Virus record (IMG/VR): IMGVR_UViG_2563366976_000009
Span: 1-30,850 of that record
From: a virus
Taxonomy: Duplodnaviria > Heunggongvirae > Uroviricota > Caudoviricetes
Direction: 5' to 3' (one strand)
DNA length: 30,850 nucleotides
The notes under the pieces are model-generated. The model saw nothing but the letters and a program-made list of their open reading frames with translations, did not search any database and was not told the origin of the DNA. The position numbers and the translations under genes are program-made. Position 1 is the first letter of the stretch. Each line of letters opens with the position of its first letter. Positions 3,468 to 27,804 of the stretch are shown one piece after another.

Positions 3468-3704
3468 ATGAGCGACCTATCATTAACCCAGCCAAAGCTA
3501 AAAGAATGTCCGTTTTGCGGCGGTAATGCTCGTCTGTGGGTTGAGGCCGGAATAAATATTGATGTGTGGGGCTATGCAGAATGTGACCTCTGTGAAGCCA
3601 GGGGGGCATGGGCACCATCAGTTGCTGCGGCGGCTGAAAAATGGAACCGGAGAGCAGGAGATGAAGCAAACCTTTCTGCTTCGCAACGAAGCAATCAGAA
3701 ATAA
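3468..3704 (+). CDS. Lar-family restriction-alleviation protein (Rac prophage Lar-like).
   Basis: Translation contains CPFCGG … C-x2-C … WNRRA, resembling Lar; AAGGAG RBS 5 nt upstream of ATG 3468. Confidence 0.5.
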   Translation: MSDLSLTQPKLKECPFCGGNARLWVEAGINIDVWGYAECDLCEARGAWAPSVAAAAEKWNRRAGDEANLSASQRSNQK

Positions 3705-4107
3705 CGCCATAGACGCAATACTCTCACTTCCCATCGACGACAAGTCACCCCACGAAGTCCACGTTAAAGAATCCAAGCGTAGCAAAGCGCAGAATGACCG
3801 TATGTGGCCGATGCTGAACGATGTTTCGCGTCAGGTGCTATGGCATGGTCAACGGCTGGCGCCGGAAGACTGGAAAGACCTGTTCACTGCCCTGTGGCTT
3901 AAGACCAAAAAACTGGAGCAACGAAGTGTGCCTGGTATCGACGGTGGCGTTGTCATGCTTGGCGTGCGTACCAGCAAAATGCGAAAGGCCAGCATGACTG
4001 AGCTTATCGAAATCATGTTTTGGTTCGGCTCAGAGCGCAACGTGCGGTGGAGTGATGACTCCCGGCGAGAGTATGAATGGTCACAACGAACAGGGAGGGA
4101 GGCATGA
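3661..4107 (+). CDS. ninB: NinB recombination protein.
   Basis: MKQTF…DQNRxxW…DVSRQVxWHG…SDD… matches remembered lambda NinB along its length. The ORF-track start at 3559 is an upstream extension. Confidence 0.85.
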
Positions 4108-4286
4108 GGCGACAGCGACGAAGTTTCACCGACATCATCTGCGAAAACTGCAAATACCTTCCAACGAAACGCTCCAGAAATAAACGCAAGCCAATCCCAA
4201 AAGAATCTGACGTAAAAACCTTCAACTACACGGCTCACCTGTGGGATATCCGGTGGCTAAGACATCGTGCGAGGAAAACAAGGTGA
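4104..4286 (+). CDS. ninE: NinE protein.
   Basis: [60 protein letters not shown], near-identical to remembered lambda NinE. ATGA overlap with ninB. Confidence 0.85.
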
Positions 4287-4462
4287 TTGACCAAAATCGA
4301 AGTTACGAACAAGAAAGCGTCGAGCGGGCTTTAACGTGCGCTAATTGCGGTCAGAAGCTGCATGTGCTGGAAGTTCACGTGTGTGAGCGTTGTATATATG
4401 AATGCTTAAATATGGTGGAACATAATGAGAAATATAAGCAACATAGACGAATTAAGAAATAA
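4283..4462 (+). pseudogene. ninF: ninF interrupted by an insertion. The N-terminal 37 codons are NinF-like ([37 protein letters not shown]), then the frame runs into unrelated sequence inside the inserted HNH gene.
   Basis: GTG start overlapping the ninE stop (GTGA). Similarity to lambda NinF stops abruptly after …HVCERC at about 4395. Confidence 0.7.
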
Positions 4463-4931
4463 ATTATCATATGATGATGTTTTAGGTGTACTTAGATGGA
4501 AAGTGTCTCCTTCTAATAATGTTAAGGTTGGCAGTGTTGCTGGTTACATTAGGAGTGATGGTTATAGGATGTTAACTATCGATGGTGTAATTACTTATGC
4601 TCACCACGTTATATGGATGATAAATAATGGTGAGATTCCATTAGGGTATAAAATTGATCATATAAATGGAGTAAGGTCAGATAATAGGCTATCTAATCTT
4701 CGATTGGTTACACACCAACAGAATGCACAGAACCAAAAGAGAAAAATAACCAATTCGTCAGGAGTGACTGGAGTATATTTCAATAAAGAGAGATGCAAGT
4801 GGATTGCGAATATATGCGTAGATGGGCGCACCAAATATCTTGGAATATTTGCTAGCATCATTGACGCTATTGCAGAAAGGAAGAGGGCAGAAAAAGAACT
4901 GGGTTTTCATGAAAACCATGGCAGACCATAA
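4425..4931 (+). CDS. HNH endonuclease with C-terminal AP2-type DNA-binding domain (free-standing homing-endonuclease-like), inserted within ninF.
   Basis: HNH motif …IDHINGVRSDNRLSNLRLVTHQQNAQN; AP2-like segment SGVTGVYFNKERCKWIANICVDGRTKYLGIF. Confidence 0.8.
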   Translation: MRNISNIDELRNKLSYDDVLGVLRWKVSPSNNVKVGSVAGYIRSDGYRMLTIDGVITYAHHVIWMINNGEIPLGYKIDHINGVRSDNRLSNLRLVTHQQNAQNQKRKITNSSGVTGVYFNKERCKWIANICVDGRTKYLGIFASIIDAIAERKRAEKELGFHENHGRP

Positions 4932-4932
4932 C

Positions 4933-4992
4933 TGCGCAGAACTGATGAGCGATCCGAATAGCTCAATGTACGAGGAAGAAGACGATGGCTAA
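4933..4992 (+). other. ninF: Displaced 3' remnant of ninF ([19 protein letters not shown]), in a different frame from the ninF 5' part.
   Basis: Translation matches the remembered lambda NinF C-terminus (…[19 protein letters not shown]). It begins 1 nt after the HNH stop and overlaps the ninG start as in lambda. Confidence 0.6.
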
Positions 4993-5596
4993 ACCAGCGC
5001 GAAGACGATGTAAAAACGATGAATGTCGGGAATGGTTTCACCCTGCATTCGCCAATCAGTGGTGGTGCTCTCCAGAGTGTGGAACCAAGATAGCACTCGA
5101 ACGACGAAGTAAAGAACGCGAAAAAGCGGAAAAGGCAGCAGAGAAGAAACGACGACGAGAGGAGCAGAAACAGAAAGATAAACTTAAGATTCGAAAACTC
5201 GCCTTAAAGCCCCGCAGTTACTGGATTAAACAAGCCCAACAAGCCGTAAACGCCTTCATCAGAGAAAGAGACCACGACTTACCATGTATCTCGTGCGGAA
5301 CGCTCACGTCTGCTCAGTGGGATGCCGGACATTACCGGACAACTTCTGCGGCACCTCAACTCCGATTTGATGAACGCAATATTCACAAGCAATGCGTGGT
5401 GTGCAACCAGCATAAAAGCGGAAATCTCGTTCCGTATCGCGTCGAACTGATTAACCGCATCGGGCAGGAAGCAGTAGACGAAATCGAATTAAACCATAAC
5501 CGCCATCGCTGGACTGTCGAAGAGTGCAGGGCCATCAAGGCGGAGTATCAGCAGAAACTTAAAAATCTGCGAAACAGCAGAAGTGAGGCAGCATGA
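4985..5596 (+). CDS. ninG: NinG (Rap) recombination protein.
   Basis: 203 aa, Cys-rich N-terminus and lysine-rich coil; size and position match lambda NinG. Confidence 0.8.
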
Positions 5597-10459: not shown

Positions 10460-10954
10460 ATGAATATGGCAGCACCAAAGGGCAACCGATTCTGGGAGGC
10501 CCGCAGTAGTCATGGGCGAAACCCTAAATTCGAATCGCCTGAGGCGCTGTGGGCTGCTTGTTGTGAATACTTCGAGTGGGCTGATGATAACCCGCTATGG
10601 GAGGGTAAGGTATTTTCATATCAGGGAGAAATAATTAAGGCTAATCTTCCTAAGATGCGAGCCATGACTATTTCAGGATTGTGTACCTTCCTTGATATCA
10701 CCAGGCAAACATGGGGAACCTTCCGGTCAATGGAAGGTTTTTCTGACGTCACATCACGAGCGGAAGACATCATCTACGACCAGAAATTCTCTGGCGCAGC
10801 CGCTGACCTTCTCAACGCTAACATCATCGCCCGTGATTTGGGCCTCAAAGAGCAGTCGCAAGTTGAAGACGTGACACCTGATAAGGGAGATCGCGATAAG
10901 CGACGCTCTCGTATCAAGGAGCTATTCAACCGTGGAACTGGACGCGATTCTTGA
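10460..10954 (+). CDS. Terminase small subunit.
   Basis: 164 aa, immediately upstream of and overlapping the large terminase; size and position as P22 gp3. Confidence 0.6.
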
Positions 10955-12428
10955 TAACCTGAGCGACGAAGAGCAAATCGAGTTGCTCGAGCTACTCGAA
11001 GAAGAAGAGAACTACCGGAACACACACCTGCTATATGAATTTACGCCATACAGCAAACAGCGTGAGTTCATCGACGCCGGGCATGACTATCCAGAGCGCT
11101 GTTTTATGGCTGGTAACCAGCTTGGTAAGTCATTTACTGGTGCTGCTGAAGTCGCGTTTCACCTTACCGGGCGTTATCCGGGCACAAAAGGCTATCCTGC
11201 TGATGGTAAATATGGCGGTGAGTGGAAAGGTAAGCGTTTCTATGAGCCTGTTGTCTTCTGGATTGGCGGCGAGACAAACGAGACTGTAACCAAAACGACT
11301 CAACGCATCCTGTGCGGTCGTATTGAAGAGAATGACGAGCCAGGCTACGGTTCCATACCGAAAGAAGACATCATTAGCTGGAAGAAGTCTCCTTTCTTTC
11401 CGAACCTTGTTGATCATCTTCTGGTTAAGCATCACACGGCTGATGGCGTTGAAGATGGCATTTCAATCTGCTACTTCAAACCATACTCGCAAGGACGCGC
11501 TCGCTGGCAGGGTGACACAATCCACGGCGTGTGGTTTGACGAAGAGCCACCATACAGCATTTATGGCGAAGGGCTTACCCGTACCAACAAATACGGGCAA
11601 TTCTCAATTCTGACGTTTACCCCGCTGATGGGGATGTCTGACGTTGTTACCAAGTTCCTGAAGAATCCCAGCAAGTCGCAGAAAGTGGTCAACATGACCA
11701 TCTATGACGCTGAGCACTACACCGACGAGCAGAAAGAGCAAATCATCGCATCTTATCCTGAGCATGAGAGAGAGGCGCGTGCTCGCGGTATTCCTACGAT
11801 GGGTAGCGGTCGAATCTTCCAGATACCGGAAGAGACGATTAAGTGTCAGCCGTTCGAGTGTCCTGATCACTTCTACGTCATCAATGCAATGGACTTCGGA
11901 TGGGATCACCCACAGGCACATATCCAGCTTTGGTGGGATAAAGACGAGGACGTGATTTATCTTTCTCGCGTCTGGAAGGCCAAACAGAAGAAGGCGACAG
12001 AGGCATGGAGTGCTGTTAAAGCATGGAGCAAAAACACCCCTACGGCTTGGCCTCATGACGGGCATCAGCACGAAAAGGGAGGCGGCGCTCAGCTCAAGGA
12101 ACAATACGCCGACGCTGGGTTCGACATGTTGCCAGATCATGCAACATGGCCTGATGGAGGTAATGCGGTCGAACCCGGGATAGCAGAGATACGCGACATG
12201 ATGCTCGACGGTCGTTTCAAGGTATTTAACACCTGCGAGCCATTCTTTGAAGAGTTTCGCCTGTATCACCGCGATGAGAACGGGAAGATCGTCAAGCTAA
12301 ATGACGACATCCTTTCTGCTGTTCGCTATGGCTACATGATGAGGCGTTTTGCAATACAGATGCGAGACATCAAAGATCCTAAAGAGATTGATTACTCAAG
12401 CTACAACATACCTTGCGGAGTTGGATGA
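10932..12428 (+). CDS. Terminase large subunit (GTG start).
   Basis: 498 aa; ATPase/nuclease-type terminase features and P22 gp2-like position and size. Confidence 0.85.
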
Positions 12429-14629
12429 TGGCTGATGATAGAAAGATGACTGACTGGCATCGCAAGGTGCTGTGCAACTTTGATAATGCCTGGTCAGCAA
12501 CGCAGGATATGCGAGAGCAGATTATTGAGGCTCAACGTTTCGTCCGGGTGTCCGGCGCACAGTGGGAAGGCAGCACAAACGCTGGTTACTCATTTGATGA
12601 AGGCAGGTTTGAGCATTACCCGCGCTTTGAACTGAATAAGATTGCCCGTGAATGTGATCGCATCATTGGCGAGTATCGACAGAATCGCATCAGCGTTAAA
12701 TTCAGGCCGAAGGATGACAAGGCATCGGAAGCGTTAGCCGAAAAGATGAACGGCAAATTCCGCGCTGACTATCAGGAAACATCCGGTGGCGAAGCGTGTG
12801 ATAACGCATTTGATGATGCTGTAACGGGCGGATTCGGTTGTTTCCGCATGTGTGCCGATTACGAAGATGAAATGGACCCAAGTAACGAGCAGCGACGCAT
12901 CAGCCTTCTTCCTGTTTACGACCCAGCGACATGCGTTTTCTTCGATCAGGACAGCAAGCAATATGACCGCTCTGATGCTATGTGGGCTATGGAAATGTTC
13001 TCCATGACGCCTAAAGCGTTCGAGGCTGAATACCCTGATTCCATCGCGGCAAGCCTTTCTCGTGATGACACTGGTACTCAGTATGACTGGTCAACGCCTG
13101 ACGCCATCTATGTTGGACGCTACTACGAAGTTCGCGTAGAGAAGGTGAAGCTCACAGCATGGCGTAACCCTGTTAGCGGAGAAACGGCAATCTATGATGA
13201 AGATCAAATCAAAGATATTGTCGACGAGCTGACCGATGGCGCATTCGAACTGATTGGTGAGCGGACAGTGAAGAAACGCCGAGTTTATTGCGGTCTTCTG
13301 TCTGGCGCTGAATGGCTGGAAGAACCGAAGCGTATTCCGGGCGAACATATTCCTCTCATCCCGGTATATGGGCGTCGTTCATTTGTTGATAATCAGGAGC
13401 GAATCGAAGGCCACGCAGCAAAAGCGATGGATGCACAGCGTCTTGAGAACCTGATGGTTTCCATGATTGCAGATAACGCTACTCAGGCTGGCGGCGATGG
13501 CATTCCTGTAGTTGATGTTGACATGATTCCTGGTCCTCTTGCCACTCATTGGGCGGAGCGCAACAAAAAGCGCCCGGCGTTCCTGCCGATGGTCAGTCTG
13601 AAAAACAAAAACGGAGATATTACTGCGCAGGCTCAGGTCAGCAGTTATACACCTACAACACAAATGCCTCCTGCTCTTGCCGGGCTATTGCAGTACACCG
13701 GAACTGCTATTCAGCAAATTACAGGTGCGTCGCAGCTTGAGAACATGCCGAGCAACGTCGCCACCGATACCGTTGATAGCATCTTTAACCGGATGGACAC
13801 GCAGTCCTATATCTACATGGACAACATGGCTAAATCCATGCGTCGCGCTGGCGTTGTGTGGCTTTCTATGGCGCGTGAGGTCTATGGCAGTGATACGCCG
13901 ATGCGTATCGTTAATGAGGACGGCAGCGATGACGTGGCGCTGATGACTGGTGAAGTGGTTGACCGTCAGACAGGGCAGGTTATCGCGCTTAATGACCTTT
14001 CGCAGGGCAACTATGAAGTGACTGTCGATGTCGGTCAGTCGTTCGCTACTCGTCGTGATGCAACGGTTAAGTCGTTACTTTCCATGCTGGCACTTATCCC
14101 ACCAGGAACGCAGAAGCACGACCTTGTATCGTCGATGATTCTCGACAATATGGACGGCGAAGGGATGGACGACCTTAAAGAATACAACCGCAATCAGTTG
14201 CTTCTGTCTGGCGTTATCAAGCCGAGAACGCCTGAAGAACAGCAGATGGTTGAACAGGCGAAACAACAACAGGCCAGTCAGCCAGATCCGGCTATGGTTG
14301 CAGCGCAAGGTCAACTTCTTGCTGGTCAGGCTGAATTGCAGAAAGCGCAGAACGAACAGGCAGCTATTCAGGTTAAAGCATTCCAGGCACAGACGGATGC
14401 TCAGGTTGCTGCGGCAAATGTTGTGAAAATCCTCGCATCTGCCGATAGCCAGCAGAAATCTGATATCCGCGAGGCTCTGAAACTGCTCGGACAGTTCCAG
14501 CAACAGCAAGGAGATAACGCCCGTGCTGATGCAGAGCTTGTCCTGAAAAGTCAGGCACAGGGCCATGCACAACGAATGGACATCAGCAGCATCCTGCAAA
14601 AATCAACCCAGCAACAATCACAGCAGTAA
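12428..14629 (+). CDS. Portal protein (P22 gp1-like), with a Gln/Ala-rich C-terminal coiled-coil barrel.
   Basis: About 733 aa; N-terminus MADDRK… and C-terminal …PEEQQ…QAKQ…DPAMV…AQG…LL.GQAEL.KAQN… parallel remembered P22 portal; start overlaps the terminase stop. Confidence 0.85.
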   Translation: MADDRKMTDWHRKVLCNFDNAWSATQDMREQIIEAQRFVRVSGAQWEGSTNAGYSFDEGRFEHYPRFELNKIARECDRIIGEYRQNRISVKFRPKDDKASEALAEKMNGKFRADYQETSGGEACDNAFDDAVTGGFGCFRMCADYEDEMDPSNEQRRISLLPVYDPATCVFFDQDSKQYDRSDAMWAMEMFSMTPKAFEAEYPDSIAASLSRDDTGTQYDWSTPDAIYVGRYYEVRVEKVKLTAWRNPVSGETAIYDEDQIKDIVDELTDGAFELIGERTVKKRRVYCGLLSGAEWLEEPKRIPGEHIPLIPVYGRRSFVDNQERIEGHAAKAMDAQRLENLMVSMIADNATQAGGDGIPVVDVDMIPGPLATHWAERNKKRPAFLPMVSLKNKNGDITAQAQVSSYTPTTQMPPALAGLLQYTGTAIQQITGASQLENMPSNVATDTVDSIFNRMDTQSYIYMDNMAKSMRRAGVVWLSMAREVYGSDTPMRIVNEDGSDDVALMTGEVVDRQTGQVIALNDLSQGNYEVTVDVGQSFATRRDATVKSLLSMLALIPPGTQKHDLVSSMILDNMDGEGMDDLKEYNRNQLLLSGVIKPRTPEEQQMVEQAKQQQASQPDPAMVAAQGQLLAGQAELQKAQNEQAAIQVKAFQAQTDAQVAAANVVKILASADSQQKSDIREALKLLGQFQQQQGDNARADAELVLKSQAQGHAQRMDISSILQKSTQQQSQQ

Positions 14630-14719
14630 TTAACCAATAACGTGCAATGGCTGTCTTTATGAGGCCTGGCACCCTATTGCCTTCCGATGGGCTGAACATC
14701 GAGTAAACAGGGGTAACAA

Positions 14720-15616
14720 ATGGACCAGATGGCAGAAAACACACCAGAAGTTGAAATAGAAACCGATACATCAGAGCAGATTCCTGATGATGTCGAACTG
14801 GCTGAAGAAGTCGAAACAGAAGATGGCAGTGAGTCCTCCGGCAATGATGCAGAGGAAGCTACTGAAACTGATGACGACGAATCAGAACAGGAATTCTACT
14901 TTGGTGACGAAAAGCTGGATTCGCCAACCAGCGAAGATGGCGCTGAGCATGGACTGGTAAAACACCTGCGCAAGACGATTAAAGAGAAAGACCGCGAGCT
15001 GAAAGAGCTGATGCGTCAGTCCCAGAAACCCGTCGAGCAGCAGCCGGTAATCACTCAACCACCGCGAATGCCAAAACTGGATGATGAGGACATCGGTTTC
15101 GATGAAGAAATCTACCAGCAACGCATGGCTAAGTGGGCGGAGGACAACGGCAAATACCAGGAGCAAGTACGAGAGCGGAAACGAGAGGAAGAGGCGCGTA
15201 CCGCAACGCTTCAGCAGAAAGCAGCCAATTACATGCATAGAGTAAAAGCACTGAAAGTGGCTGGTTACCAGGATGCAGAGCAGGCTGTACGCGAAGATGT
15301 TCCTGTTCACATTCAGGACATGATCCTTCTTGAGTCAGAGAAGCCGGAAATCGTTGTTCTGGCACTCGGTCGCAACGCTGAACTGCGCAAGCAACTGGCA
15401 GAAGCTACCAACCCCGTAGCAATTGGTCGTCTGCTGGAACGTATCGAATCGAAGGCCAGAATCATGCCAAAAGCAAAAACCACGGCAGCCACAACCCCGA
15501 CAGTTAAGGGGAGCAACGGCGCAGTAATCAATAACCTCGACAAACTTCTCGAAAAAGCGCGCGACACCGGTGATTACACCGAATACCGGGCGGCGAAGAA
15601 CAAAGCTAAAAAATAA
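14720..15616 (+). CDS. Scaffolding protein.
   Basis: 298 aa, highly acidic N-terminus, Glu/Lys/Arg-rich helical body; position between portal and coat. Confidence 0.65.
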   Translation: MDQMAENTPEVEIETDTSEQIPDDVELAEEVETEDGSESSGNDAEEATETDDDESEQEFYFGDEKLDSPTSEDGAEHGLVKHLRKTIKEKDRELKELMRQSQKPVEQQPVITQPPRMPKLDDEDIGFDEEIYQQRMAKWAEDNGKYQEQVRERKREEEARTATLQQKAANYMHRVKALKVAGYQDAEQAVREDVPVHIQDMILLESEKPEIVVLALGRNAELRKQLAEATNPVAIGRLLERIESKARIMPKAKTTAATTPTVKGSNGAVINNLDKLLEKARDTGDYTEYRAAKNKAKK

Positions 15617-15636
15617 TCCATCGGAGCTAAATACCT

Positions 15637-16896
15637 ATGTCTAACCAGTTAACAAAAGACCTCGAAATCCTCTTTGAGAGCGTCATTGATAGTTTTGAGG
15701 CGTCCAATGTCGTTTCCCGCGAGTGCAGCAAGTTCCGACCGGGCGACATTGAAATGCAGCGCGCTGGCGACGTTGTTTATCGCCCTCAGGGCTACCACCT
15801 GAAAACCGTGAGCGGACTTGATCTGACTTCGGCCACTGCAAACTCACTCGTTCAGCGTCAGGTGCCTGCTCGCTTCCGCGAGCCAGAGAACGTCATCTAC
15901 GAACTGGACGCAAAAGAAATGCGCGATCCGTGGCACAAAGAGCAGGCTGGCAAGGCGGCGGGTCGCCAGTTGGCGGCGTGGGTTGATAACATGATCGTCG
16001 ATGAGGTGGTCGCTCGCTCCACCAACGTGGTCACCATTAAATCGGCGTCCACCGGTAGCACTCTCGGCGAAGAACTCTGGAACGCATCGGCTGACGTTGA
16101 TGCAATGATGCTGTCCATTGGTGTGCCTCAGGGTGGTCAGCGCAAGGCGTTCTACAACCCGTTCAACTACAAAGACCTGGCTAAGGAGCTTGGCTCTCGC
16201 GCATATGCGGTCGGTGCAACTCTGACAGCCTATGAGAAAGCTCAGATTCCACCTGTGGCATCCTTCGACAGTTTCCGCGTTGATTATGCTGGCGCAATGA
16301 AGGCTGGTTCAGCTACCGCTGTAACTCTCGGCGGCGCAGTAGCACATAAAGTTACCGCGATGGATTCCAACGGAGCGCCTACCGATAACCGCCAGGGTGA
16401 TATCACCGTATCCGCTGAGAACGTACTGGCTGTCGGTGATGCATTCACTATCGAAGGCGTTAACAGTGTCCACATGATCAAGAAGGTGGATACAGGTCAG
16501 CCGCAGGTATTCCGCGTCCTGGATGTAAAAGGCACTACCGTTACCATCAGCCCGAAAATTCTGCCACCAGACAACGCGGATAAGGCGTCTATTCCTTACC
16601 AGAACGTTACCGCCAATCCGAAGAATAGCGCGAAGATCAACATCCTCAACAAGAAGGCTGCGGCTTCCAACATCTTCTTCGCTGAGGGTTCTGTTGAGCT
16701 GATGTATGGCAAGTTGGCATTCCCTACCGGCCAGGGTCCGCAGGTTATGACCGCAACGACCGAGCAGGGTGCGACCATCATCATGGCTTACCAATTCGAC
16801 GCTAAATCTGGCAAAACGTGGACTCGCTTCACCACGCTGGCTGGCGCAAGCGTACTGGTCCCGGAATTCACCGGCCTGGTATTGGCTAACCAGTAA
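15637..16896 (+). CDS. Major capsid (coat) protein.
   Basis: 419 aa, follows the scaffold gene, and is followed by a strong terminator as is typical for coat genes. Confidence 0.7.
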   Translation: MSNQLTKDLEILFESVIDSFEASNVVSRECSKFRPGDIEMQRAGDVVYRPQGYHLKTVSGLDLTSATANSLVQRQVPARFREPENVIYELDAKEMRDPWHKEQAGKAAGRQLAAWVDNMIVDEVVARSTNVVTIKSASTGSTLGEELWNASADVDAMMLSIGVPQGGQRKAFYNPFNYKDLAKELGSRAYAVGATLTAYEKAQIPPVASFDSFRVDYAGAMKAGSATAVTLGGAVAHKVTAMDSNGAPTDNRQGDITVSAENVLAVGDAFTIEGVNSVHMIKKVDTGQPQVFRVLDVKGTTVTISPKILPPDNADKASIPYQNVTANPKNSAKINILNKKAAASNIFFAEGSVELMYGKLAFPTGQGPQVMTATTEQGATIIMAYQFDAKSGKTWTRFTTLAGASVLVPEFTGLVLANQ

Positions 16897-24170: not shown

Positions 24171-24560
24171 TTAACATTTTCTTTTTACTTTTCCAACAAA
24201 AGCTTTGGTTGAATCCATATTCCCATAACCAGAAATGGTTTTTGACATTAAAACTGTTCCAGTAGGATGTATTACCCATGAGTCGATAACGCGTTGAGTT
24301 TCGCCATTCGCGCCGATTCCTATGATGGAGTTTTTAGACAATGCTTTGTAAGCCATGCCGTCCGCATCTGTCCCAGAATATGTGATGCTGGCATCTTCAC
24401 CGCTTGTCTTAATGATGAATGTTCCACTAAAACCATCTTCTTCCGGATGGAAATTATTTCGTTCTGAATAGCTTATTCCGCGCATATCTCCAACGACCCA
24501 GCACTCTGCTGTAGCCCCAAAAGATATGAATAAGAACATAGCAGCAAGAAATTGCTTCAC
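24171..24560 (-). CDS. Secreted (signal-peptide) protein of unknown function, about 129 aa, in the cargo island.
   Basis: GTG start with AAGGAG RBS 6 nt upstream on the minus strand. N-terminus MKQFLAAMFLFISFGATA/ECW… is a signal-peptidase-I type signal. One Cys near the mature N-terminus and one at the extreme C-terminus. Confidence 0.5.
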   Translation of the reverse strand: MKQFLAAMFLFISFGATAECWVVGDMRGISYSERNNFHPEEDGFSGTFIIKTSGEDASITYSGTDADGMAYKALSKNSIIGIGANGETQRVIDSWVIHPTGTVLMSKTISGYGNMDSTKAFVGKVKRKC

Positions 24561-24590
24561 ACCAAGCTCCTTAGTTTTGAGCAGGATACC

Positions 24591-24956
24591 ATGAAAAAAG
24601 TTAACATTGGAAACGTACCAAAGATGCTCGTTCCGCTCTTTGAGAGCGGTACAATTGTGTTTTGTAGAGACTTTCCAGAATGGCAACGCCTGCATCAAAA
24701 ACTTGGCGTTGACGTGCATGACTCGGACGCCAACGGAGCGTCTCATACAATGAGCAGCGAGAATGGTGTTTTGCATGTGATAGGCGTGTTCAATGGCAAA
24801 CTATCTACTATTGCCCATGAGTGCGCTCACATGGCATTCGATATCTGCTCAAGGGTCGGTGTTGATGTTGAACCAGGAAGAGCCAATGAGACTTACTGCT
24901 ACTTAATGAGCAGGCTTGTTGAGTTCTGCGAGCGACATATCAAAAAGCCGGAGTGA
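24591..24956 (+). CDS. Small HExxH protein (121 aa), putative zinc metallopeptidase of the ImmA/IrrE (M78)-like type.
   Basis: Motif STIAHECAHMAFD followed about 14 residues later by E…ANE. Divergent from the secreted-protein gene, with only about 30 bp between start codons. Confidence 0.45.
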   Translation: MKKVNIGNVPKMLVPLFESGTIVFCRDFPEWQRLHQKLGVDVHDSDANGASHTMSSENGVLHVIGVFNGKLSTIAHECAHMAFDICSRVGVDVEPGRANETYCYLMSRLVEFCERHIKKPE

Positions 24957-24963
24957 CCCGGCT
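24941..24963 (-). terminator. Rho-independent terminator for the minus-strand small gene, overlapping the stop codon of the + strand HExxH gene.
   Basis: AGCCGG-agtgac-CCGGCT stem with the U-run on the minus strand (plus-strand AAAAA at 24942-24946). Confidence 0.5.
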
Positions 24964-24969
24964 TGAGTA

Positions 24970-25149
24970 TTACTTTTTGCTGTCTGGAGTTCGCTTATCC
25001 AATACCCAGCCATGACCTGGCTTTGTTGTTGGTGGAAGCCTTTCGTTGTCCTTGACGGTTGCAAAATTGTCTTTCTTACCGCCGCGTGGGCCAACTTCTT
25101 GGTATATTCCGCCGTTTTTTCCTGTGTTTTCACCTGGTTTTTTCGCCAT
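24970..25149 (-). CDS. Small hydrophilic Gly/Lys-rich protein (59 aa), YjzC-like.
   Basis: MAKKPGENTGKNGGIYQEVGPRGG… resembles the YjzC-type small-protein pattern. GAGG RBS; candidate promoter TTGACT-17-AATATT upstream on the minus strand. Confidence 0.4.
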   Translation of the reverse strand: MAKKPGENTGKNGGIYQEVGPRGGKKDNFATVKDNERLPPTTKPGHGWVLDKRTPDSKK

Positions 25150-25240
25150 GATATACCTCAACATATACCCGTTATTGGGCGATTAAATATTGATCTCATT
25201 TTATAAGTAGTCAATATGGCCCAGGTAAATGCAAAAATTA

Positions 25241-25264
25241 ACCCACCGTCAGGTGGGTTTTTTT
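25241..25264 (+). terminator. Strong, probably bidirectional, rho-independent terminator.
   Basis: ACCCACC-gtca-GGTGGGT stem followed by TTTTTT on the + strand and preceded by an A-run (U-run for the minus strand). Confidence 0.65.
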
Positions 25265-25296: not shown

Positions 25297-25482
25297 ATGA
25301 CCATAGAAGAACGTCTGAACAACATTGAGTTGAATCAAACCCTGCTTGACCAGCGACTTTCAGATCTTGAGCTTAAAGATCTAGATGTGCAAATATCAGA
25401 AGCAGAAGCCAAGCTCTCCAGCTTAAACCACCGCAGGAAGCAAATCCGCGACAGAATTACTCGTGGACGCGGAGGCTGTTAA
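25297..25482 (+). CDS. Hypothetical 61-aa coiled-coil protein.
   Basis: AAGGAAA RBS before the ATG; heptad-like leucine spacing; no family recognised. Confidence 0.35.
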   Translation: MTIEERLNNIELNQTLLDQRLSDLELKDLDVQISEAEAKLSSLNHRRKQIRDRITRGRGGC

Positions 25483-25559
25483 GGTGTGATGGTAATCCTT
25501 GCTCACTAAATTTAAGGATGCGAATCTTTCCGGCCATAGGAGTAATCATGATTTACCCA

Positions 25560-26096
25560 TCAAACAACCCACCAGTTTGCCTGATTGGATACCAGCCTTG
25601 CAGTTTTTATGGAATTAATTATGCCATGCTCAAGAGCCTTGTTAGCATCCAAAATGGTCGAGTCTGCTATCAGGGATGCCCACCTAATATGGGTTCCGAT
25701 GTCGATATTGAACGTCTCAACGAAGCGATCAAGATCGTTATCGAGGCATTTCCCGTACTCTCTCAATCTGGCATGGTCGGCGGCTGGGGAGGCAAAGCAC
25801 CATAATAGAGGATGTAACAGGAATCTTGATAATGGGTTTGCGAAACGTTCTGAGCCAGCCAGGAAAACGATATTAGCTATGGATTCAACATTGCTTATGT
25901 TGTGAGTTCTAACGGTAACAGGGAGTGACTTAAGAAAGTTATACGCAGTAAAGCCAGCGGCAGTTTCCCCTCCCTGACTTGATATATGGATATTTAATTC
26001 AGTTGCGCCTTGAGATAATGCGGTGAGACAGTGGTTCTGAAGTTGCCCAACAGTGGCAGTGTTAACGGGGCATAAGAAATGAATTGTGTGCAGCAT
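25560..26096 (-). CDS. ClpP-fold (Clp protease-like) serine protease, 178 aa, translationally coupled to mnt.
   Basis: …IHISSQGGETAAGFTAYNFLKSLPVTVRTHNISNVESIANIVFLAGSERFANPLSRFLLHPL… aligns with the ClpP core (INSPGG…TAG…GQAASMG…LPNSRxMIHQP). The Ser and His positions appear conserved. Its ATG overlaps the mnt stop (TAATG). Confidence 0.6.
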   Translation of the reverse strand: MLHTIHFLCPVNTATVGQLQNHCLTALSQGATELNIHISSQGGETAAGFTAYNFLKSLPVTVRTHNISNVESIANIVFLAGSERFANPLSRFLLHPLLWCFASPAADHARLREYGKCLDNDLDRFVETFNIDIGTHIRWASLIADSTILDANKALEHGIINSIKTARLVSNQANWWVV

Positions 26097-26350
26097 TATT
26101 TATCATCCTTGCCATAAATCTTTTTAAGTGTCTCAAACACAACGGCCTTGAACTGCTCTGCTTGCTGATCAGCCAAGCGTTCAGCTTCGTCTCGATAGCC
26201 TGCAATCGGTGATGGCTTTGAGAGAGCATCCTGAACGATTTGTAATAACTCAGAGTTCATTGACCTTCCGTTAGCCTCTGCTCTTAATTTCAATTTTTCT
26301 CTTACTTCCAAAGGCATACGGAAGTTAAAGTGCGGATCGTTTCTAGCCAT
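26096..26350 (-). CDS. mnt: Mnt repressor (ribbon-helix-helix), P22 Mnt-like.
   Basis: MARNDPHFNFRMPLEVREKLKLRAEANGRSMNSELLQIVQDALSKPSP… near-identical to remembered P22 Mnt. Confidence 0.85.
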   Translation of the reverse strand: MARNDPHFNFRMPLEVREKLKLRAEANGRSMNSELLQIVQDALSKPSPIAGYRDEAERLADQQAEQFKAVVFETLKKIYGKDDK

Positions 26351-26440
26351 GCCATCACCCCAAGTTAGTGTATTGACATGATAGAAGCACTCTACTATAT
26401 TCTCAATAGGTCCACAGTGGACCTATATTGTGAGGTAAAT
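26351..26440. promoter_or_regulatory. immI control region. Pant (-35 TTGACA 26373-26378, -10 TATATT 26396-26401); Arc operator ATGATAGAAGCACTCTACTAT (26378-26398); Mnt operator palindrome AGGTCCACAGTGGACCT (26408-26424); divergent Pmnt on the minus strand (TTGAGA-17-TATCAT).
   Basis: Sequence matches the remembered P22 Pant/Oarc/Omnt arrangement; hexamers and palindromes read directly. Confidence 0.7.
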
Positions 26441-26599
26441 ATGAAAGGAATGAGCAAAATGCCGCAGTTCAATTTGCGGTGGCCTAAAGAAGTATTGGAT
26501 TTGGTGCGTAAGGTGGCGGAAGAGAACGGGCGATCTGTTAACTCTGAGATTTACAAGCGAGTGTTGGACAGCCTGAAGAGAGAGGGGATAACGGTATGA
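26441..26599 (+). CDS. arc: Arc repressor (ribbon-helix-helix).
   Basis: MKGMSKMPQFNLRWPKEVLDLVRKVAEENGRSVNSEIYKRVLDSLKREGITV matches remembered P22 Arc. The ORF-track start at 26378 is an upstream extension through the operator region. Confidence 0.9.
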   Translation: MKGMSKMPQFNLRWPKEVLDLVRKVAEENGRSVNSEIYKRVLDSLKREGITV

Positions 26600-26817
26600 G
26601 GTTTATTGAGGTTGATGAGATTGGCTATGAGAATGCACTTGGTAGAGGTAAATCTTTAGTTAACATTGATGGCATTGAATCGATAAGGAGTGGTGAATTT
26701 ACGGAGATCAGAATGATGTCAGGCGGAATCATTCCTTGCCGTGATTCAGTAGAGTCAATCAAATCAAAAATGAGTGGTCAGTGGCTTTATAGCTACAGTG
26801 ACTTACAAAAACAGTGA
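26596..26817 (+). CDS. Hypothetical 73-aa protein inserted between arc and ant, with ATGA overlap to the arc stop.
   Basis: ORF read from the sequence; no family recognised; not part of the canonical P22 immI gene set as I remember it. Confidence 0.4.
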   Translation: MRFIEVDEIGYENALGRGKSLVNIDGIESIRSGEFTEIRMMSGGIIPCRDSVESIKSKMSGQWLYSYSDLQKQ

Positions 26818-26880
26818 AGCCCCAACTGCGGGAACAGTCAGGGCTTCGGTATCGTAAAACCACGCATAGGAATTAACGAC

Positions 26881-27804
26881 ATGACGAGTGTAGCAATTGC
26901 AGAACATACAATCAACGTTCCATTCCACGGAACAAATCTCTTTTTGGTCAGCATTAACAATGAACCTTACGTTCCTATGAAACCCGTTGTAGAAGGCATG
27001 GGTATGGTTTGGGCTGCTCAATTTGTTAAATTAAAACAGAGATTTGTCAAAGGTATTTCGGAAATCGAAATACCTTCTGCTGGCGGTAAACAGTTAATGA
27101 TATGCCTTGCCTTTCGTAAGTTTGCGGCTTGGCTTTCAAGCATTCAGCCAAACAAAGTCCGCCCTGAAATCCGCGACAAGGTAATCCAGTATCAGGAAGA
27201 GTGTGACGATGTGCTCTACGAGTACTGGACTAAAGGCCATGTGGTTAACCCGCGCAAAGCTAAAAAGGCATTGCCGGGGAAAATCACCACTGAACAGCAG
27301 GAAGCCATTAAACAACTCGTCATGAGTCGCGGTCAGTCTCTGCCAAAAGAAAAACAGGCTAAGGCGATGATCACCATGTGGTCGTCACTGAAATCCCATT
27401 TTGGGTGTTCATACAAAGAAATCAGCGAGGAGCAGTTTACCGAAGCTCTGTCACTTGCTGCTCGCGTTCCGCTTGAAGGTGAGTTCATTGGCAAACAAGA
27501 GAAGAAAACCAACGAGCTTTCTGCAAAAGAAGCAAACAGCCTTGTATGGTTATGGGATTATGCCAACCGTTCACAGGCATTATTCCGCGAATTGTATCCG
27601 GCGCTAAAACAAATTCAATCGAACTATTCAGGCAGATGTCATGACTGCGGTTATGAGTTCTCCCGTATTATCGATATGGCGAGAGATGTTTTAATCAACC
27701 ATACACGAGATGTTGATATTAATGAGCCAGGCGGACCGACGAACCTTTCAGCATGGATAAGACTTAAGAATAAAGAATTACCTCCTTCAGTACATAACTA
27801 CTGA
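26881..27804 (+). CDS. ant: Antirepressor Ant.
   Basis: N-terminal …VPFHGTNLFLV…PYVPMKPVVEGMGMVW…PEIRDKVIQYQEECDDVLYEYWTKG parallels remembered P22 Ant; position after arc. Confidence 0.8.
   Translation: MTSVAIAEHTINVPFHGTNLFLVSINNEPYVPMKPVVEGMGMVWAAQFVKLKQRFVKGISEIEIPSAGGKQLMICLAFRKFAAWLSSIQPNKVRPEIRDKVIQYQEECDDVLYEYWTKGHVVNPRKAKKALPGKITTEQQEAIKQLVMSRGQSLPKEKQAKAMITMWSSLKSHFGCSYKEISEEQFTEALSLAARVPLEGEFIGKQEKKTNELSAKEANSLVWLWDYANRSQALFRELYPALKQIQSNYSGRCHDCGYEFSRIIDMARDVLINHTRDVDINEPGGPTNLSAWIRLKNKELPPSVHNY

Follow-up and report, generated by a model that had tools for sequence, protein, structure and literature searches.

The P22-type immI region and the gene joined to mnt

The sequence considered here is a stretch of 30,850 nucleotides (the window), positions 1 to 30,850 of the IMG/VR virus record IMGVR_UViG_2563366976_000009, which belongs to the Caudoviricetes. 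It represents a CUS-3-like, P22-type prophage of Escherichia coli: of the 24.9 kb compared with CUS-3, 57% aligns at 94.6% identity. Its tailspike is a K1 endosialidase. The subject of this study is a minus-strand gene in the immI region of the window, which follows the repressor gene mnt directly and encodes a protein of the ClpP family (the ClpP-like gene; Table 1).

The TAA stop codon of mnt (26098-26096) shares one base with the ATG of the ClpP-like gene (26096-26094), forming TAATG in the sequence ...GGCAAGGATGATAAATAATGCTG. An overlap of this kind before a minus-strand open reading frame (ORF) of 178 codons had been claimed in the original prediction, made by a model from the letters of the sequence, and is borne out at 26096. 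The junction (T/G)AAGGAT(G/A)A(A/T)AAATAATG, which includes the Shine-Dalgarno sequence, recurs in a Pectobacterium prophage and, among 37 related junction sequences extracted, in all but one, which is missing one A of the A-run. A terminator scan of the window found no terminator-like site between mnt and the ClpP-like gene. Judging from these signals, the ClpP-like gene is translationally coupled to Mnt within the Pmnt operon.

In the alignment to P22, the Pmnt-like site corresponds by exact position to the annotated P22 mnt promoter, and the Pant-like site to the annotated arc/ant promoter together with the Arc and Mnt operators. Based on the annotation and biology of P22, the ClpP-like gene would be transcribed from Pmnt in the lysogen. 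After mnt and the ClpP-like gene, the predicted Pmnt transcript continues for 300 nt antisense to orf61, passes the hairpin (25259-25240) and the orf59a homologue, and reaches the terminator (24964-24945). Membership of the mnt operon, proposed beforehand, is thus supported by the fusion to mnt, the lack of a terminator-like site between the two genes and the location downstream of promoter-like sites that match those of P22.

Table 1. Features of the immI region and blocks of the mosaic in the window (positions are those of the window).
Feature	Position	Strand	Description
Terminator-like hairpin	24945..24964	-	Corresponds to annotated P22 'mnt terminator'
P22 orf59a homologue	24970..25149	-	phrog_3202, weak YjzC-like match; next same-strand gene after the ClpP-like gene
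Bidirectional hairpin	25240..25259		AACCCACC-TGAC-GGTGGGTT; 300 nt past the ClpP-like gene; overlaps the mnt stop in P22
ClpP-like gene	25560..26096	-	178 aa; N-terminally truncated ClpP-family protein
Mobile clpP module	25538..26139	-	22 bp past the stop, the gene and the last ~14 mnt codons; ~600 bp
mnt	26096..26350	-	84-aa ribbon-helix-helix repressor; Pfam Arc 3.4e-27, Repressor_Mnt 3.8e-12
AAGGA Shine-Dalgarno sequence of the ClpP-like gene	26106..26110	-	9 nt 5' of ATG, within mnt Gly-Lys-Asp codons
Pant promoter-like site	26373..26401	+	TTGACA-17-TATATT, 11/12 matches; drives arc, orf73, ant
Pmnt promoter-like site	26378..26406	-	TTGAGA-17-TATCAT, 10/12 matches; overlaps and is divergent from Pant
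arc	26441..26599	+	52 aa; Pfam Arc 5.9e-26; start set by alignment to P22 arc
sar antisense RNA	26813..26879	-	Rfam RF00262, 76.6 bits vs gathering score 43
ant antirepressor	26881..27804	+	307 aa; Pfam P22_AR_N 7e-40, P22_AR_C 2.4e-28; phrog_245
Block shared with P22	24558-25263		P22 PsieA region, orf59a and hairpin overlapping mnt stop; 97.7% identity (blastn)
Stretch absent from P22	25264..26123		860 bp; parts the mnt body from the P22 post-mnt hairpin (blastn)
Block shared with P22	26124-26587		P22 mnt, Pmnt/Pant promoter region and arc; 84.7% identity (blastn)

Family, fold and active site of the ClpP-like protein

The ISSQGG, TAAG, NVESIAN and LSRFLLHPL motifs, from which a ClpP core had been proposed, are all found in the translation. 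The profile hidden Markov model of the Pfam family CLP_protease (PF00574) matches with an expectation value (E) of 2.2e-11 and 44.4 bits (cut-off 20.2), aligning residues 24-165 with profile positions 37-180. The best solved relative is 9uxt_A, matched over the full length at E 1.8e-35. The AlphaFold2 model has a mean predicted local distance difference test (pLDDT) score of 92.5 and a predicted template modelling score (pTM) of 0.88, with a helix at 108-132. In Foldseek it superimposes on 9UXT with a template modelling (TM) score of 0.92 and a root-mean-square deviation of 1.8 A, and on solved canonical ClpPs with TM scores of 0.72-0.81. The ClpP fold is therefore agreed upon by profile search, solved relative, model and structural comparison. 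Among the viral structures of BFVD, the closest to the ClpP-like protein reach no more than 25% identity.

In a search of 1.8 billion representative proteins, 519 clusters match the ClpP-like protein at E <= 1e-10. A separate search gave 68 homologue clusters, in Enterobacterales and Chromobacterium. The protein stays far below every NCBIfam ClpP cut-off.

In the alignment with E. coli ClpP (the sequence used is identical to 1TYF), S72 falls on Ser97 and H95 on His122. Both residues are invariant in 29 relatives with identity down to 31%, and they form the predicted catalytic pair. The position of Asp171 is taken by Ser146; this column holds Ser, Ala, Thr or Gly across the wider family and Pro in the Pseudomonas sequences, and no Asp suitable as the third member of a triad is conserved in the family alignment. 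Thus, the residues suggested earlier for the catalytic Ser and His positions stand, and there is no catalytic Asp. As far as the alignment can tell, the family is of the Ser-His type, like the Pseudomonas protein PpClpP1 (Ser-His-Pro) discussed below.

The alignment places residue 1 opposite residue 24-25 of the mature E. coli protein, so the N-terminal axial loop and helix A, which in ClpP gate the pore and touch the ATPase, are missing. Five positions of E. coli ClpP, Y60, Y62, F82, I90 and L114, are replaced by the polar N35, H37, S57, H65 and N87. In comparison with the Pectobacterium copy (79% identical), the ratio of nonsynonymous to synonymous substitution rates (dN/dS) is 0.08, and synonymous sites are close to saturated; such purifying selection indicates a functional gene.

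A hydrophobic C-terminal motif, NWWV(x)(C), is found family-wide (residues 173-177 here, 25563-25580). It is predicted to form the final beta-strand (pLDDT 86-91), has no counterpart in canonical ClpP and might fill the space of the missing N-terminal helix.

Comparison with PpClpP1 and canonical ClpP

The structure 9UXT is that of PpClpP1 from Pseudomonas plecoglossicida, for which cryo-electron microscopy and biochemistry were published in 2026 (PMC12900304). PpClpP1 forms a homotetradecamer with an axial pore of 42.7 A and a Ser-His-Pro 'triad', and its Ser/His-dependent peptidase activity is ~13-fold weaker than that of the canonical paralogue (PMC12900304). PpClpP1 alone does not bind ClpX; with canonical ClpP it produces a stable heterotetradecamer, which binds ClpX via the canonical ring and degrades substrate faster (PMC12900304). 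Phages are never mentioned in that paper (PMC12900304).

The ClpP-like protein shares with PpClpP1 the full-length homology, similar length (178 and 183 aa), matching N-terminal truncation and a Ser-His pair without Asp. They differ in that identity is only 38% in the Foldseek structural alignment and that the third position is Ser/Ala here and Pro there. Moreover, the PpClpP1 orthologues are chromosomal and lie beside KGG stress genes, whereas the window gene and its enterobacterial relatives are prophage cargo. The possibility that PpClpP1 is itself a prophage gene was rejected, since its orthologues are chromosomal, 183 aa long and widespread in Pseudomonas and Azotobacter. On Pseudomonas chromosomes they are flanked by KGG stress-motif proteins and DUF6555, which hints at a role in the stress response.

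With E. coli ClpP (1TYF; MEROPS S14) the protein has in common the fold (TM ~0.8), the equivalents of Ser97 and His122, the GG oxyanion motif and the handle helix, in which D107, H108 and R110 are invariant. Its identity to canonical ClpP is only ~25%, and it lacks the first ~24 residues and an Asp171 equivalent and is polar at the five positions of the ATPase pocket.

Mosaic structure relative to P22

The 860-bp stretch absent from P22 is itself mosaic: next to the clpP module it contains a segment that also occurs in phage Emek, with orf61 on the plus strand and the tail end of Emek orf69. Comparison with P22 Mnt shows that the N-terminal part of Mnt is P22-like and that its last ~12 residues (ETLKKIYGKDDK) are those of the clpP module. 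Among 44 related loci, the left edge of the module falls on 25538 in 30 and the right edge on 26134-26183 in 31, the latter within the last 14-30 codons of mnt. The hairpin at 25240..25259 is a 100% conserved mosaic joint in four other loci, namely Emek (L111), phiv205-1 (L001), L003 and P22 (L110, with a longer match). For the Pmnt transcript, this hairpin probably acts as a partial terminator.

When the intervals after mnt are compared among P22-like phages, the slot proves to be variable: it holds the hairpin, orf59a and the annotated 'mnt terminator' in P22, orf77 and orf69 in Emek, and the ClpP-like gene in the window. The ClpP-like gene resembles the left-operon cargo of P22 immI (orf59a, sieA) in following mnt directly, with the same orientation, and in preceding both the hairpin and the orf59a terminator. 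It differs from such cargo and from bor-type morons in that its product is a predicted cytoplasmic protease, coupled to mnt and without a promoter of its own.

A 30-aa ORF at 25457-25549 (minus strand) ends in ...PSHLNSLRVHE, comparable with the C-terminus of Emek orf69, ...ASHLNSFRVPE, and looks like a remnant of cargo displaced by the clpP module. A coiled-coil ORF of 61 aa at 25297-25482 (plus strand; phrog_7586), corresponding to Emek orf61, is convergent with the ClpP-like gene, and a Pmnt read-through transcript would run antisense to it. XhlA and PADLOC PbeC (E 0.001) match it weakly, and RefSeq labels one copy as belonging to the hemolysin XhlA family.

Relation to head-maturation proteases

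As the original prediction noted, ClpP-like proteins of phages are normally prohead proteases from the head-gene cluster. The top PHROG match of the window protein is 'head maturation protease' (phrog_94, 7.4e-21), the NCBIfam model Clp_rel_HeadMat (NF045542) matches at 5.2e-13, and the gene of phiv205-1 is annotated as a head maturation protease. The protease-domain fold is common to both groups, and no other PHROG or NCBIfam family matches better.

P22-type heads are built with a scaffold and use no protease. The morphogenesis cluster of the window comprises the large terminase, P22 portal, scaffold, P22 coat and gp10-, gp7- and gp20-like proteins; the head module (10932-16896) is of the P22 type with no protease among its genes, and for this reason the ClpP-like protein is not a prohead protease. 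Its gene has the opposite orientation and follows the coat gene at a distance of ~8.7 kb, which agrees with the placement outside the morphogenesis operon stated in the original prediction. Unlike the head-maturation proteases of phrog_94 and NF045542, it lies outside the head module on the opposite strand and lacks a C-terminal scaffold or capsid extension. The NCBIfam match reaches 49.3 bits against a cut-off of 120. Finally, a Leclercia prophage combines a ClpP-type protease of 284 aa, encoded in the head module, with a 179-aa member of the family of the window gene on the other strand. A prohead protease is thus ruled out by where the gene lies and on which strand, by the size of the product, by the NCBIfam cut-off and by the co-occurrence with a true head protease.

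The same matches and the phiv205-1 annotation could also arise from a decaying relic of a prohead protease, hitch-hiking with immI and devoid of current function. This is highly improbable, given the dN/dS of 0.08, the invariant Ser and His, the full-length, undamaged ORF in all but two of 128 E. coli genomes, an NCBIfam score of no more than 49 against 120 and the coexistence of a family member with a true prohead protease in one prophage.

Distribution of the mnt-linked gene

The ClpP-like gene was found in 128 of 5426 complete E. coli genomes (2.4%), always on the chromosome and in 127 cases at no less than 99% DNA identity. Of the 128 copies, 126 are intact over their full length. Among twelve entries sampled across the ranking, every complete copy adjoins an annotated 'Arc family DNA-binding protein'. 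The carriers include the E. coli type strain ATCC 11775 and APEC O1. Among phages, the gene is present in phiv205-1, E212, EC.P3, PhiR12_1, PhiR12_4 and PhiR12_5.

Across ~40 viral loci, the ClpP-like protein is 97-100% identical, with the fused Mnt at 36-100% and Ant at 36-100% identity. A near-invariant clpP beside varied Mnt and Ant, together with the sharp edges of the blocks, indicates that the ~600-bp module recombines onto many mnt alleles. In the lambda-like siphophage PhiR12_5, the whole ant-arc-mnt-clpP cassette (3525-5559 of locus L002) is inserted between tail genes K and L, which shows the immI cassette to be mobile between podophage and siphophage backbones. The cassette ends there 22 bp past the ClpP-like gene. 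A P22-like Pectobacterium prophage contains a matching mnt-clpP fusion with 79% identity, and the antirepressor of this prophage is of the Bro-N type.

Three damaged copies were seen, L062 and L055 among the IMG/VR loci and NZ_CP122712.1 (H84), the remaining ones being intact. The damage consists of interruption by a 326-aa ORF (by eye an insertion sequence transposase), fusion of Mnt to an out-of-frame tail, and truncation to 58% of the length.

Stand-alone relatives and the link to mnt

Around the homologues of 50-74% identity, the loci compared contain neither mnt nor arc nor ant. Each of these homologues is a stand-alone gene that runs against the late or early operons. In prophages of Klebsiella, Leclercia and E. 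coli it lies between the lysis cassette and the terminase genes, in Proteus it adjoins N, and in Chromobacterium it is found between tail-fibre and lysis genes. Sites of this kind are the classic ones of lysogen-expressed cargo, for instance that of lambda bor just after the lysis genes. In an E. coli branch of 52% identity (L085-L091, L116; e.g. L086 5374-5922), a conserved gene of 182 aa lies 78 nt upstream of the homologue on the same strand; it has no Pfam or PADLOC match and could form a two-gene unit with that homologue.

A two-gene operon with the ribbon-helix-helix gene first and a stop/start overlap is reminiscent of a toxin-antitoxin pair, in which the ribbon-helix-helix protein would be the antitoxin and the ClpP-like protein the toxin, and Mnt does show weak FitA-like and RelB-like matches. 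Mnt, however, the partner in this case, possesses an operator of its own and has a separate role at Pant. Most of the family lacks the pairing, the Pseudomonas orthologues stand alone, and a ribbon-helix-helix gene was found upstream neither of the 50-74% homologues nor of the Pseudomonas orthologues. Since the pairing is not conserved across the family, a type II toxin-antitoxin system is rejected, and a toxin-antitoxin-like arrangement in general is scarcely credible.

The same data bear on a component of the immI switch, that is, on a ClpP-like protein which degrades leaky Ant (or Arc/Mnt) and acts as a post-translational lock on prophage induction. The fusion to mnt is constant in E. coli and Pectobacterium, ant, arc, mnt and clpP moved as a unit into a lambda-like siphophage, and the coupling signals outlasted saturated synonymous divergence. 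However, the homologues of 50-74% identity do without mnt, arc and ant nearby, and a near-invariant protease beside Ants that are 36-100% identical, and of the Bro-N type in Pectobacterium, makes a poor fit of enzyme and substrate. Besides, the overlap with mnt could account for the linkage in purely physical terms. Proteolytic control of Ant, Arc or Mnt had been one of the functions suggested at the outset; the linkage to mnt in two genera speaks for it, while the stand-alone homologues and divergent antirepressors have weakened it, and it is now considered improbable.

Neighbouring genes of the immI region

Between arc and ant, a 73-aa ORF is encoded at 26596-26817 (plus strand; phrog_11805, 2.8e-53), as in Emek; P22 does not have it. 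The sar RNA overlaps the 3' end of this ORF.

The P22 sieA promoter region (24558-24621) is retained at 97.7% identity, with sieA itself replaced. The replacement at 24171-24776 (minus strand) is a phrog_2651 protein (7e-60), similar to an Emek protein annotated like Sf6 gene 38. By eye it appears to have an N-terminal signal peptide (...FLFISFGATA/ECW), and it might represent different cargo in the exclusion slot. Antisense to this gene there is a 134-aa ORF at 24552-24956 (plus strand; phrog_1365, 1.3e-39). One part of it belongs to the sequence of 97.7% identity to P22, and the RefSeq table of P22 has no gene at that place; at the equivalent position, E. coli RefSeq entries show a hypothetical protein of 121 aa.

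Proposed function in the lysogen

The reading favoured here regards the ClpP-like gene as coding for a lysogen-expressed accessory ClpP paralogue, a prophage cargo gene ('moron'), with hybrid rings with host ClpP as the favoured mode of action; its chances are rated as about even. By the splicing of the ~600-bp module into the 3' end of mnt, the gene would have come under transcription from Pmnt and translation coupled to that of Mnt. Following the biology of P22, the protein would be made while Pmnt is active and Pant silent, chiefly in the established lysogen, and possibly also late in infection, after Arc shuts Pant. Homology with PpClpP1 leads one to expect a tetradecameric barrel of ClpP-type heptameric rings, whose active site would be Ser72-His95. 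Since both the N-terminal gate and the docking pocket for ClpX/ClpA are missing, a weak, ATPase-independent peptidase with a wide pore would be expected. The protein may act alone or, following the example of PpClpP1, stack one of its rings on a host ClpP ring. By analogy with PpClpP1, hybrid rings that retune host Clp proteolysis in the lysogen would be the most likely mechanism, and phage exclusion or stabilisation of lysogeny are the leading candidates for the benefit to the prophage.

Several points weigh against this reading. In the branch of E. coli and Pectobacterium, the ClpP-like gene never occurs without mnt, and so unbroken a linkage could mean a functional tie to immI and not simple cargo. 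Oligomer, activity and hybrid rings are known solely from PpClpP1, a chromosomal, non-phage homologue with 38% identity, and would apply to the ClpP-like protein by analogy. The activity of Pmnt for the ClpP-like gene is extrapolated from P22. The five polar positions concern residues that we take to be those of the ATPase-docking (IGF/LGF loop) pocket. In addition, a consensus promoter scan upstream of stand-alone homologues revealed a promoter-like and a terminator-like site at one of three loci and neither at the other two.

A different function of the same cargo would be that of a self-sufficient exclusion or abortive-infection protease, whose gate-less barrel would be made in the lysogen and would degrade unfolded or ejected proteins of the superinfecting phage, or host proteins when infection occurs, without any need for host ClpP. 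ClpP truncated at the N-terminus is able to degrade unfolded proteins without an ATPase, and this background agrees with such a function. The gene also occupies the type of slot in which exclusion genes are found: sieA and orf59a adjoin mnt in P22, the window has no sieA and carries another gene in that slot, and the relatives sit in classic opposite-strand moron sites. A plasmid with sieA, orf59a and mnt confers resistance, and the region is expressed from the prophage (PMC10883804). On the other hand, PpClpP1 alone is a weak peptidase, the Pseudomonas orthologues are set among stress genes and not in a defence island, and no literature was found that ties the ClpP-like family to defence. No PADLOC-DB 2.0.0 model matched the ClpP-like protein or six relatives at E <= 0.1, and its neighbours gave none beyond the weak match to PbeC, which rules out a defence system known to that database. 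A self-sufficient exclusion protease is therefore possible but doubtful.

The accessory-paralogue reading can be extended to the temperate phages of Enterobacterales in general. These would place a gate-less ClpP ring on host ClpP and so reprogram ClpXP/ClpAP in the lysogen, as a new kind of device of immunity or lysogeny control, which in the phage of the window would be wired to Mnt and present only while the antirepressor is off. So wide a generalisation is tentative and is considered rather unlikely to hold as a whole.

Novelty and significance

Searches of the literature on ClpP-like proteins in defence or prophages, on P22-like immI and on CUS-3 yielded only the PpClpP1 paper and background on SieA. 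The statement in the original prediction that the pairing of mnt with a ClpP-type gene is not a described system is in line with this and with the absence of a PADLOC model match. The novelty is nevertheless partial: the pairing is undescribed, whereas the family is known from the PpClpP1 structure (PMC12900304) and its members carry the RefSeq name Clp protease subunit. Neither a missing Clp match, nor absent catalytic residues, nor a known non-protease role in immI was encountered. In the literature searched and in PADLOC, the identity as widespread prophage cargo, the fusion to the Mnt operon and the link to Pseudomonas 'ClpP1' appear to be undescribed.

The gene is common, being present in 2.4% of complete E. 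coli genomes and in large Klebsiella, Proteus, Pectobacterium and Leclercia clusters, and both of its database labels, housekeeping Clp subunit and head protease, are misleading. The Pseudomonas 'ClpP1' paralogue is placed in one family with widespread phage cargo genes. The data of 2026 on the structure and heterocomplex of PpClpP1 make the idea of hybrid rings directly testable in E. coli. ClpXP and ClpAP set the fate of phage regulators and replication proteins, such as lambda O, the Mu repressor and P1 Phd. If the proposed function is true, a ClpP ring supplied by the prophage would be a direct handle of the phage on the ClpXP/ClpAP machinery.

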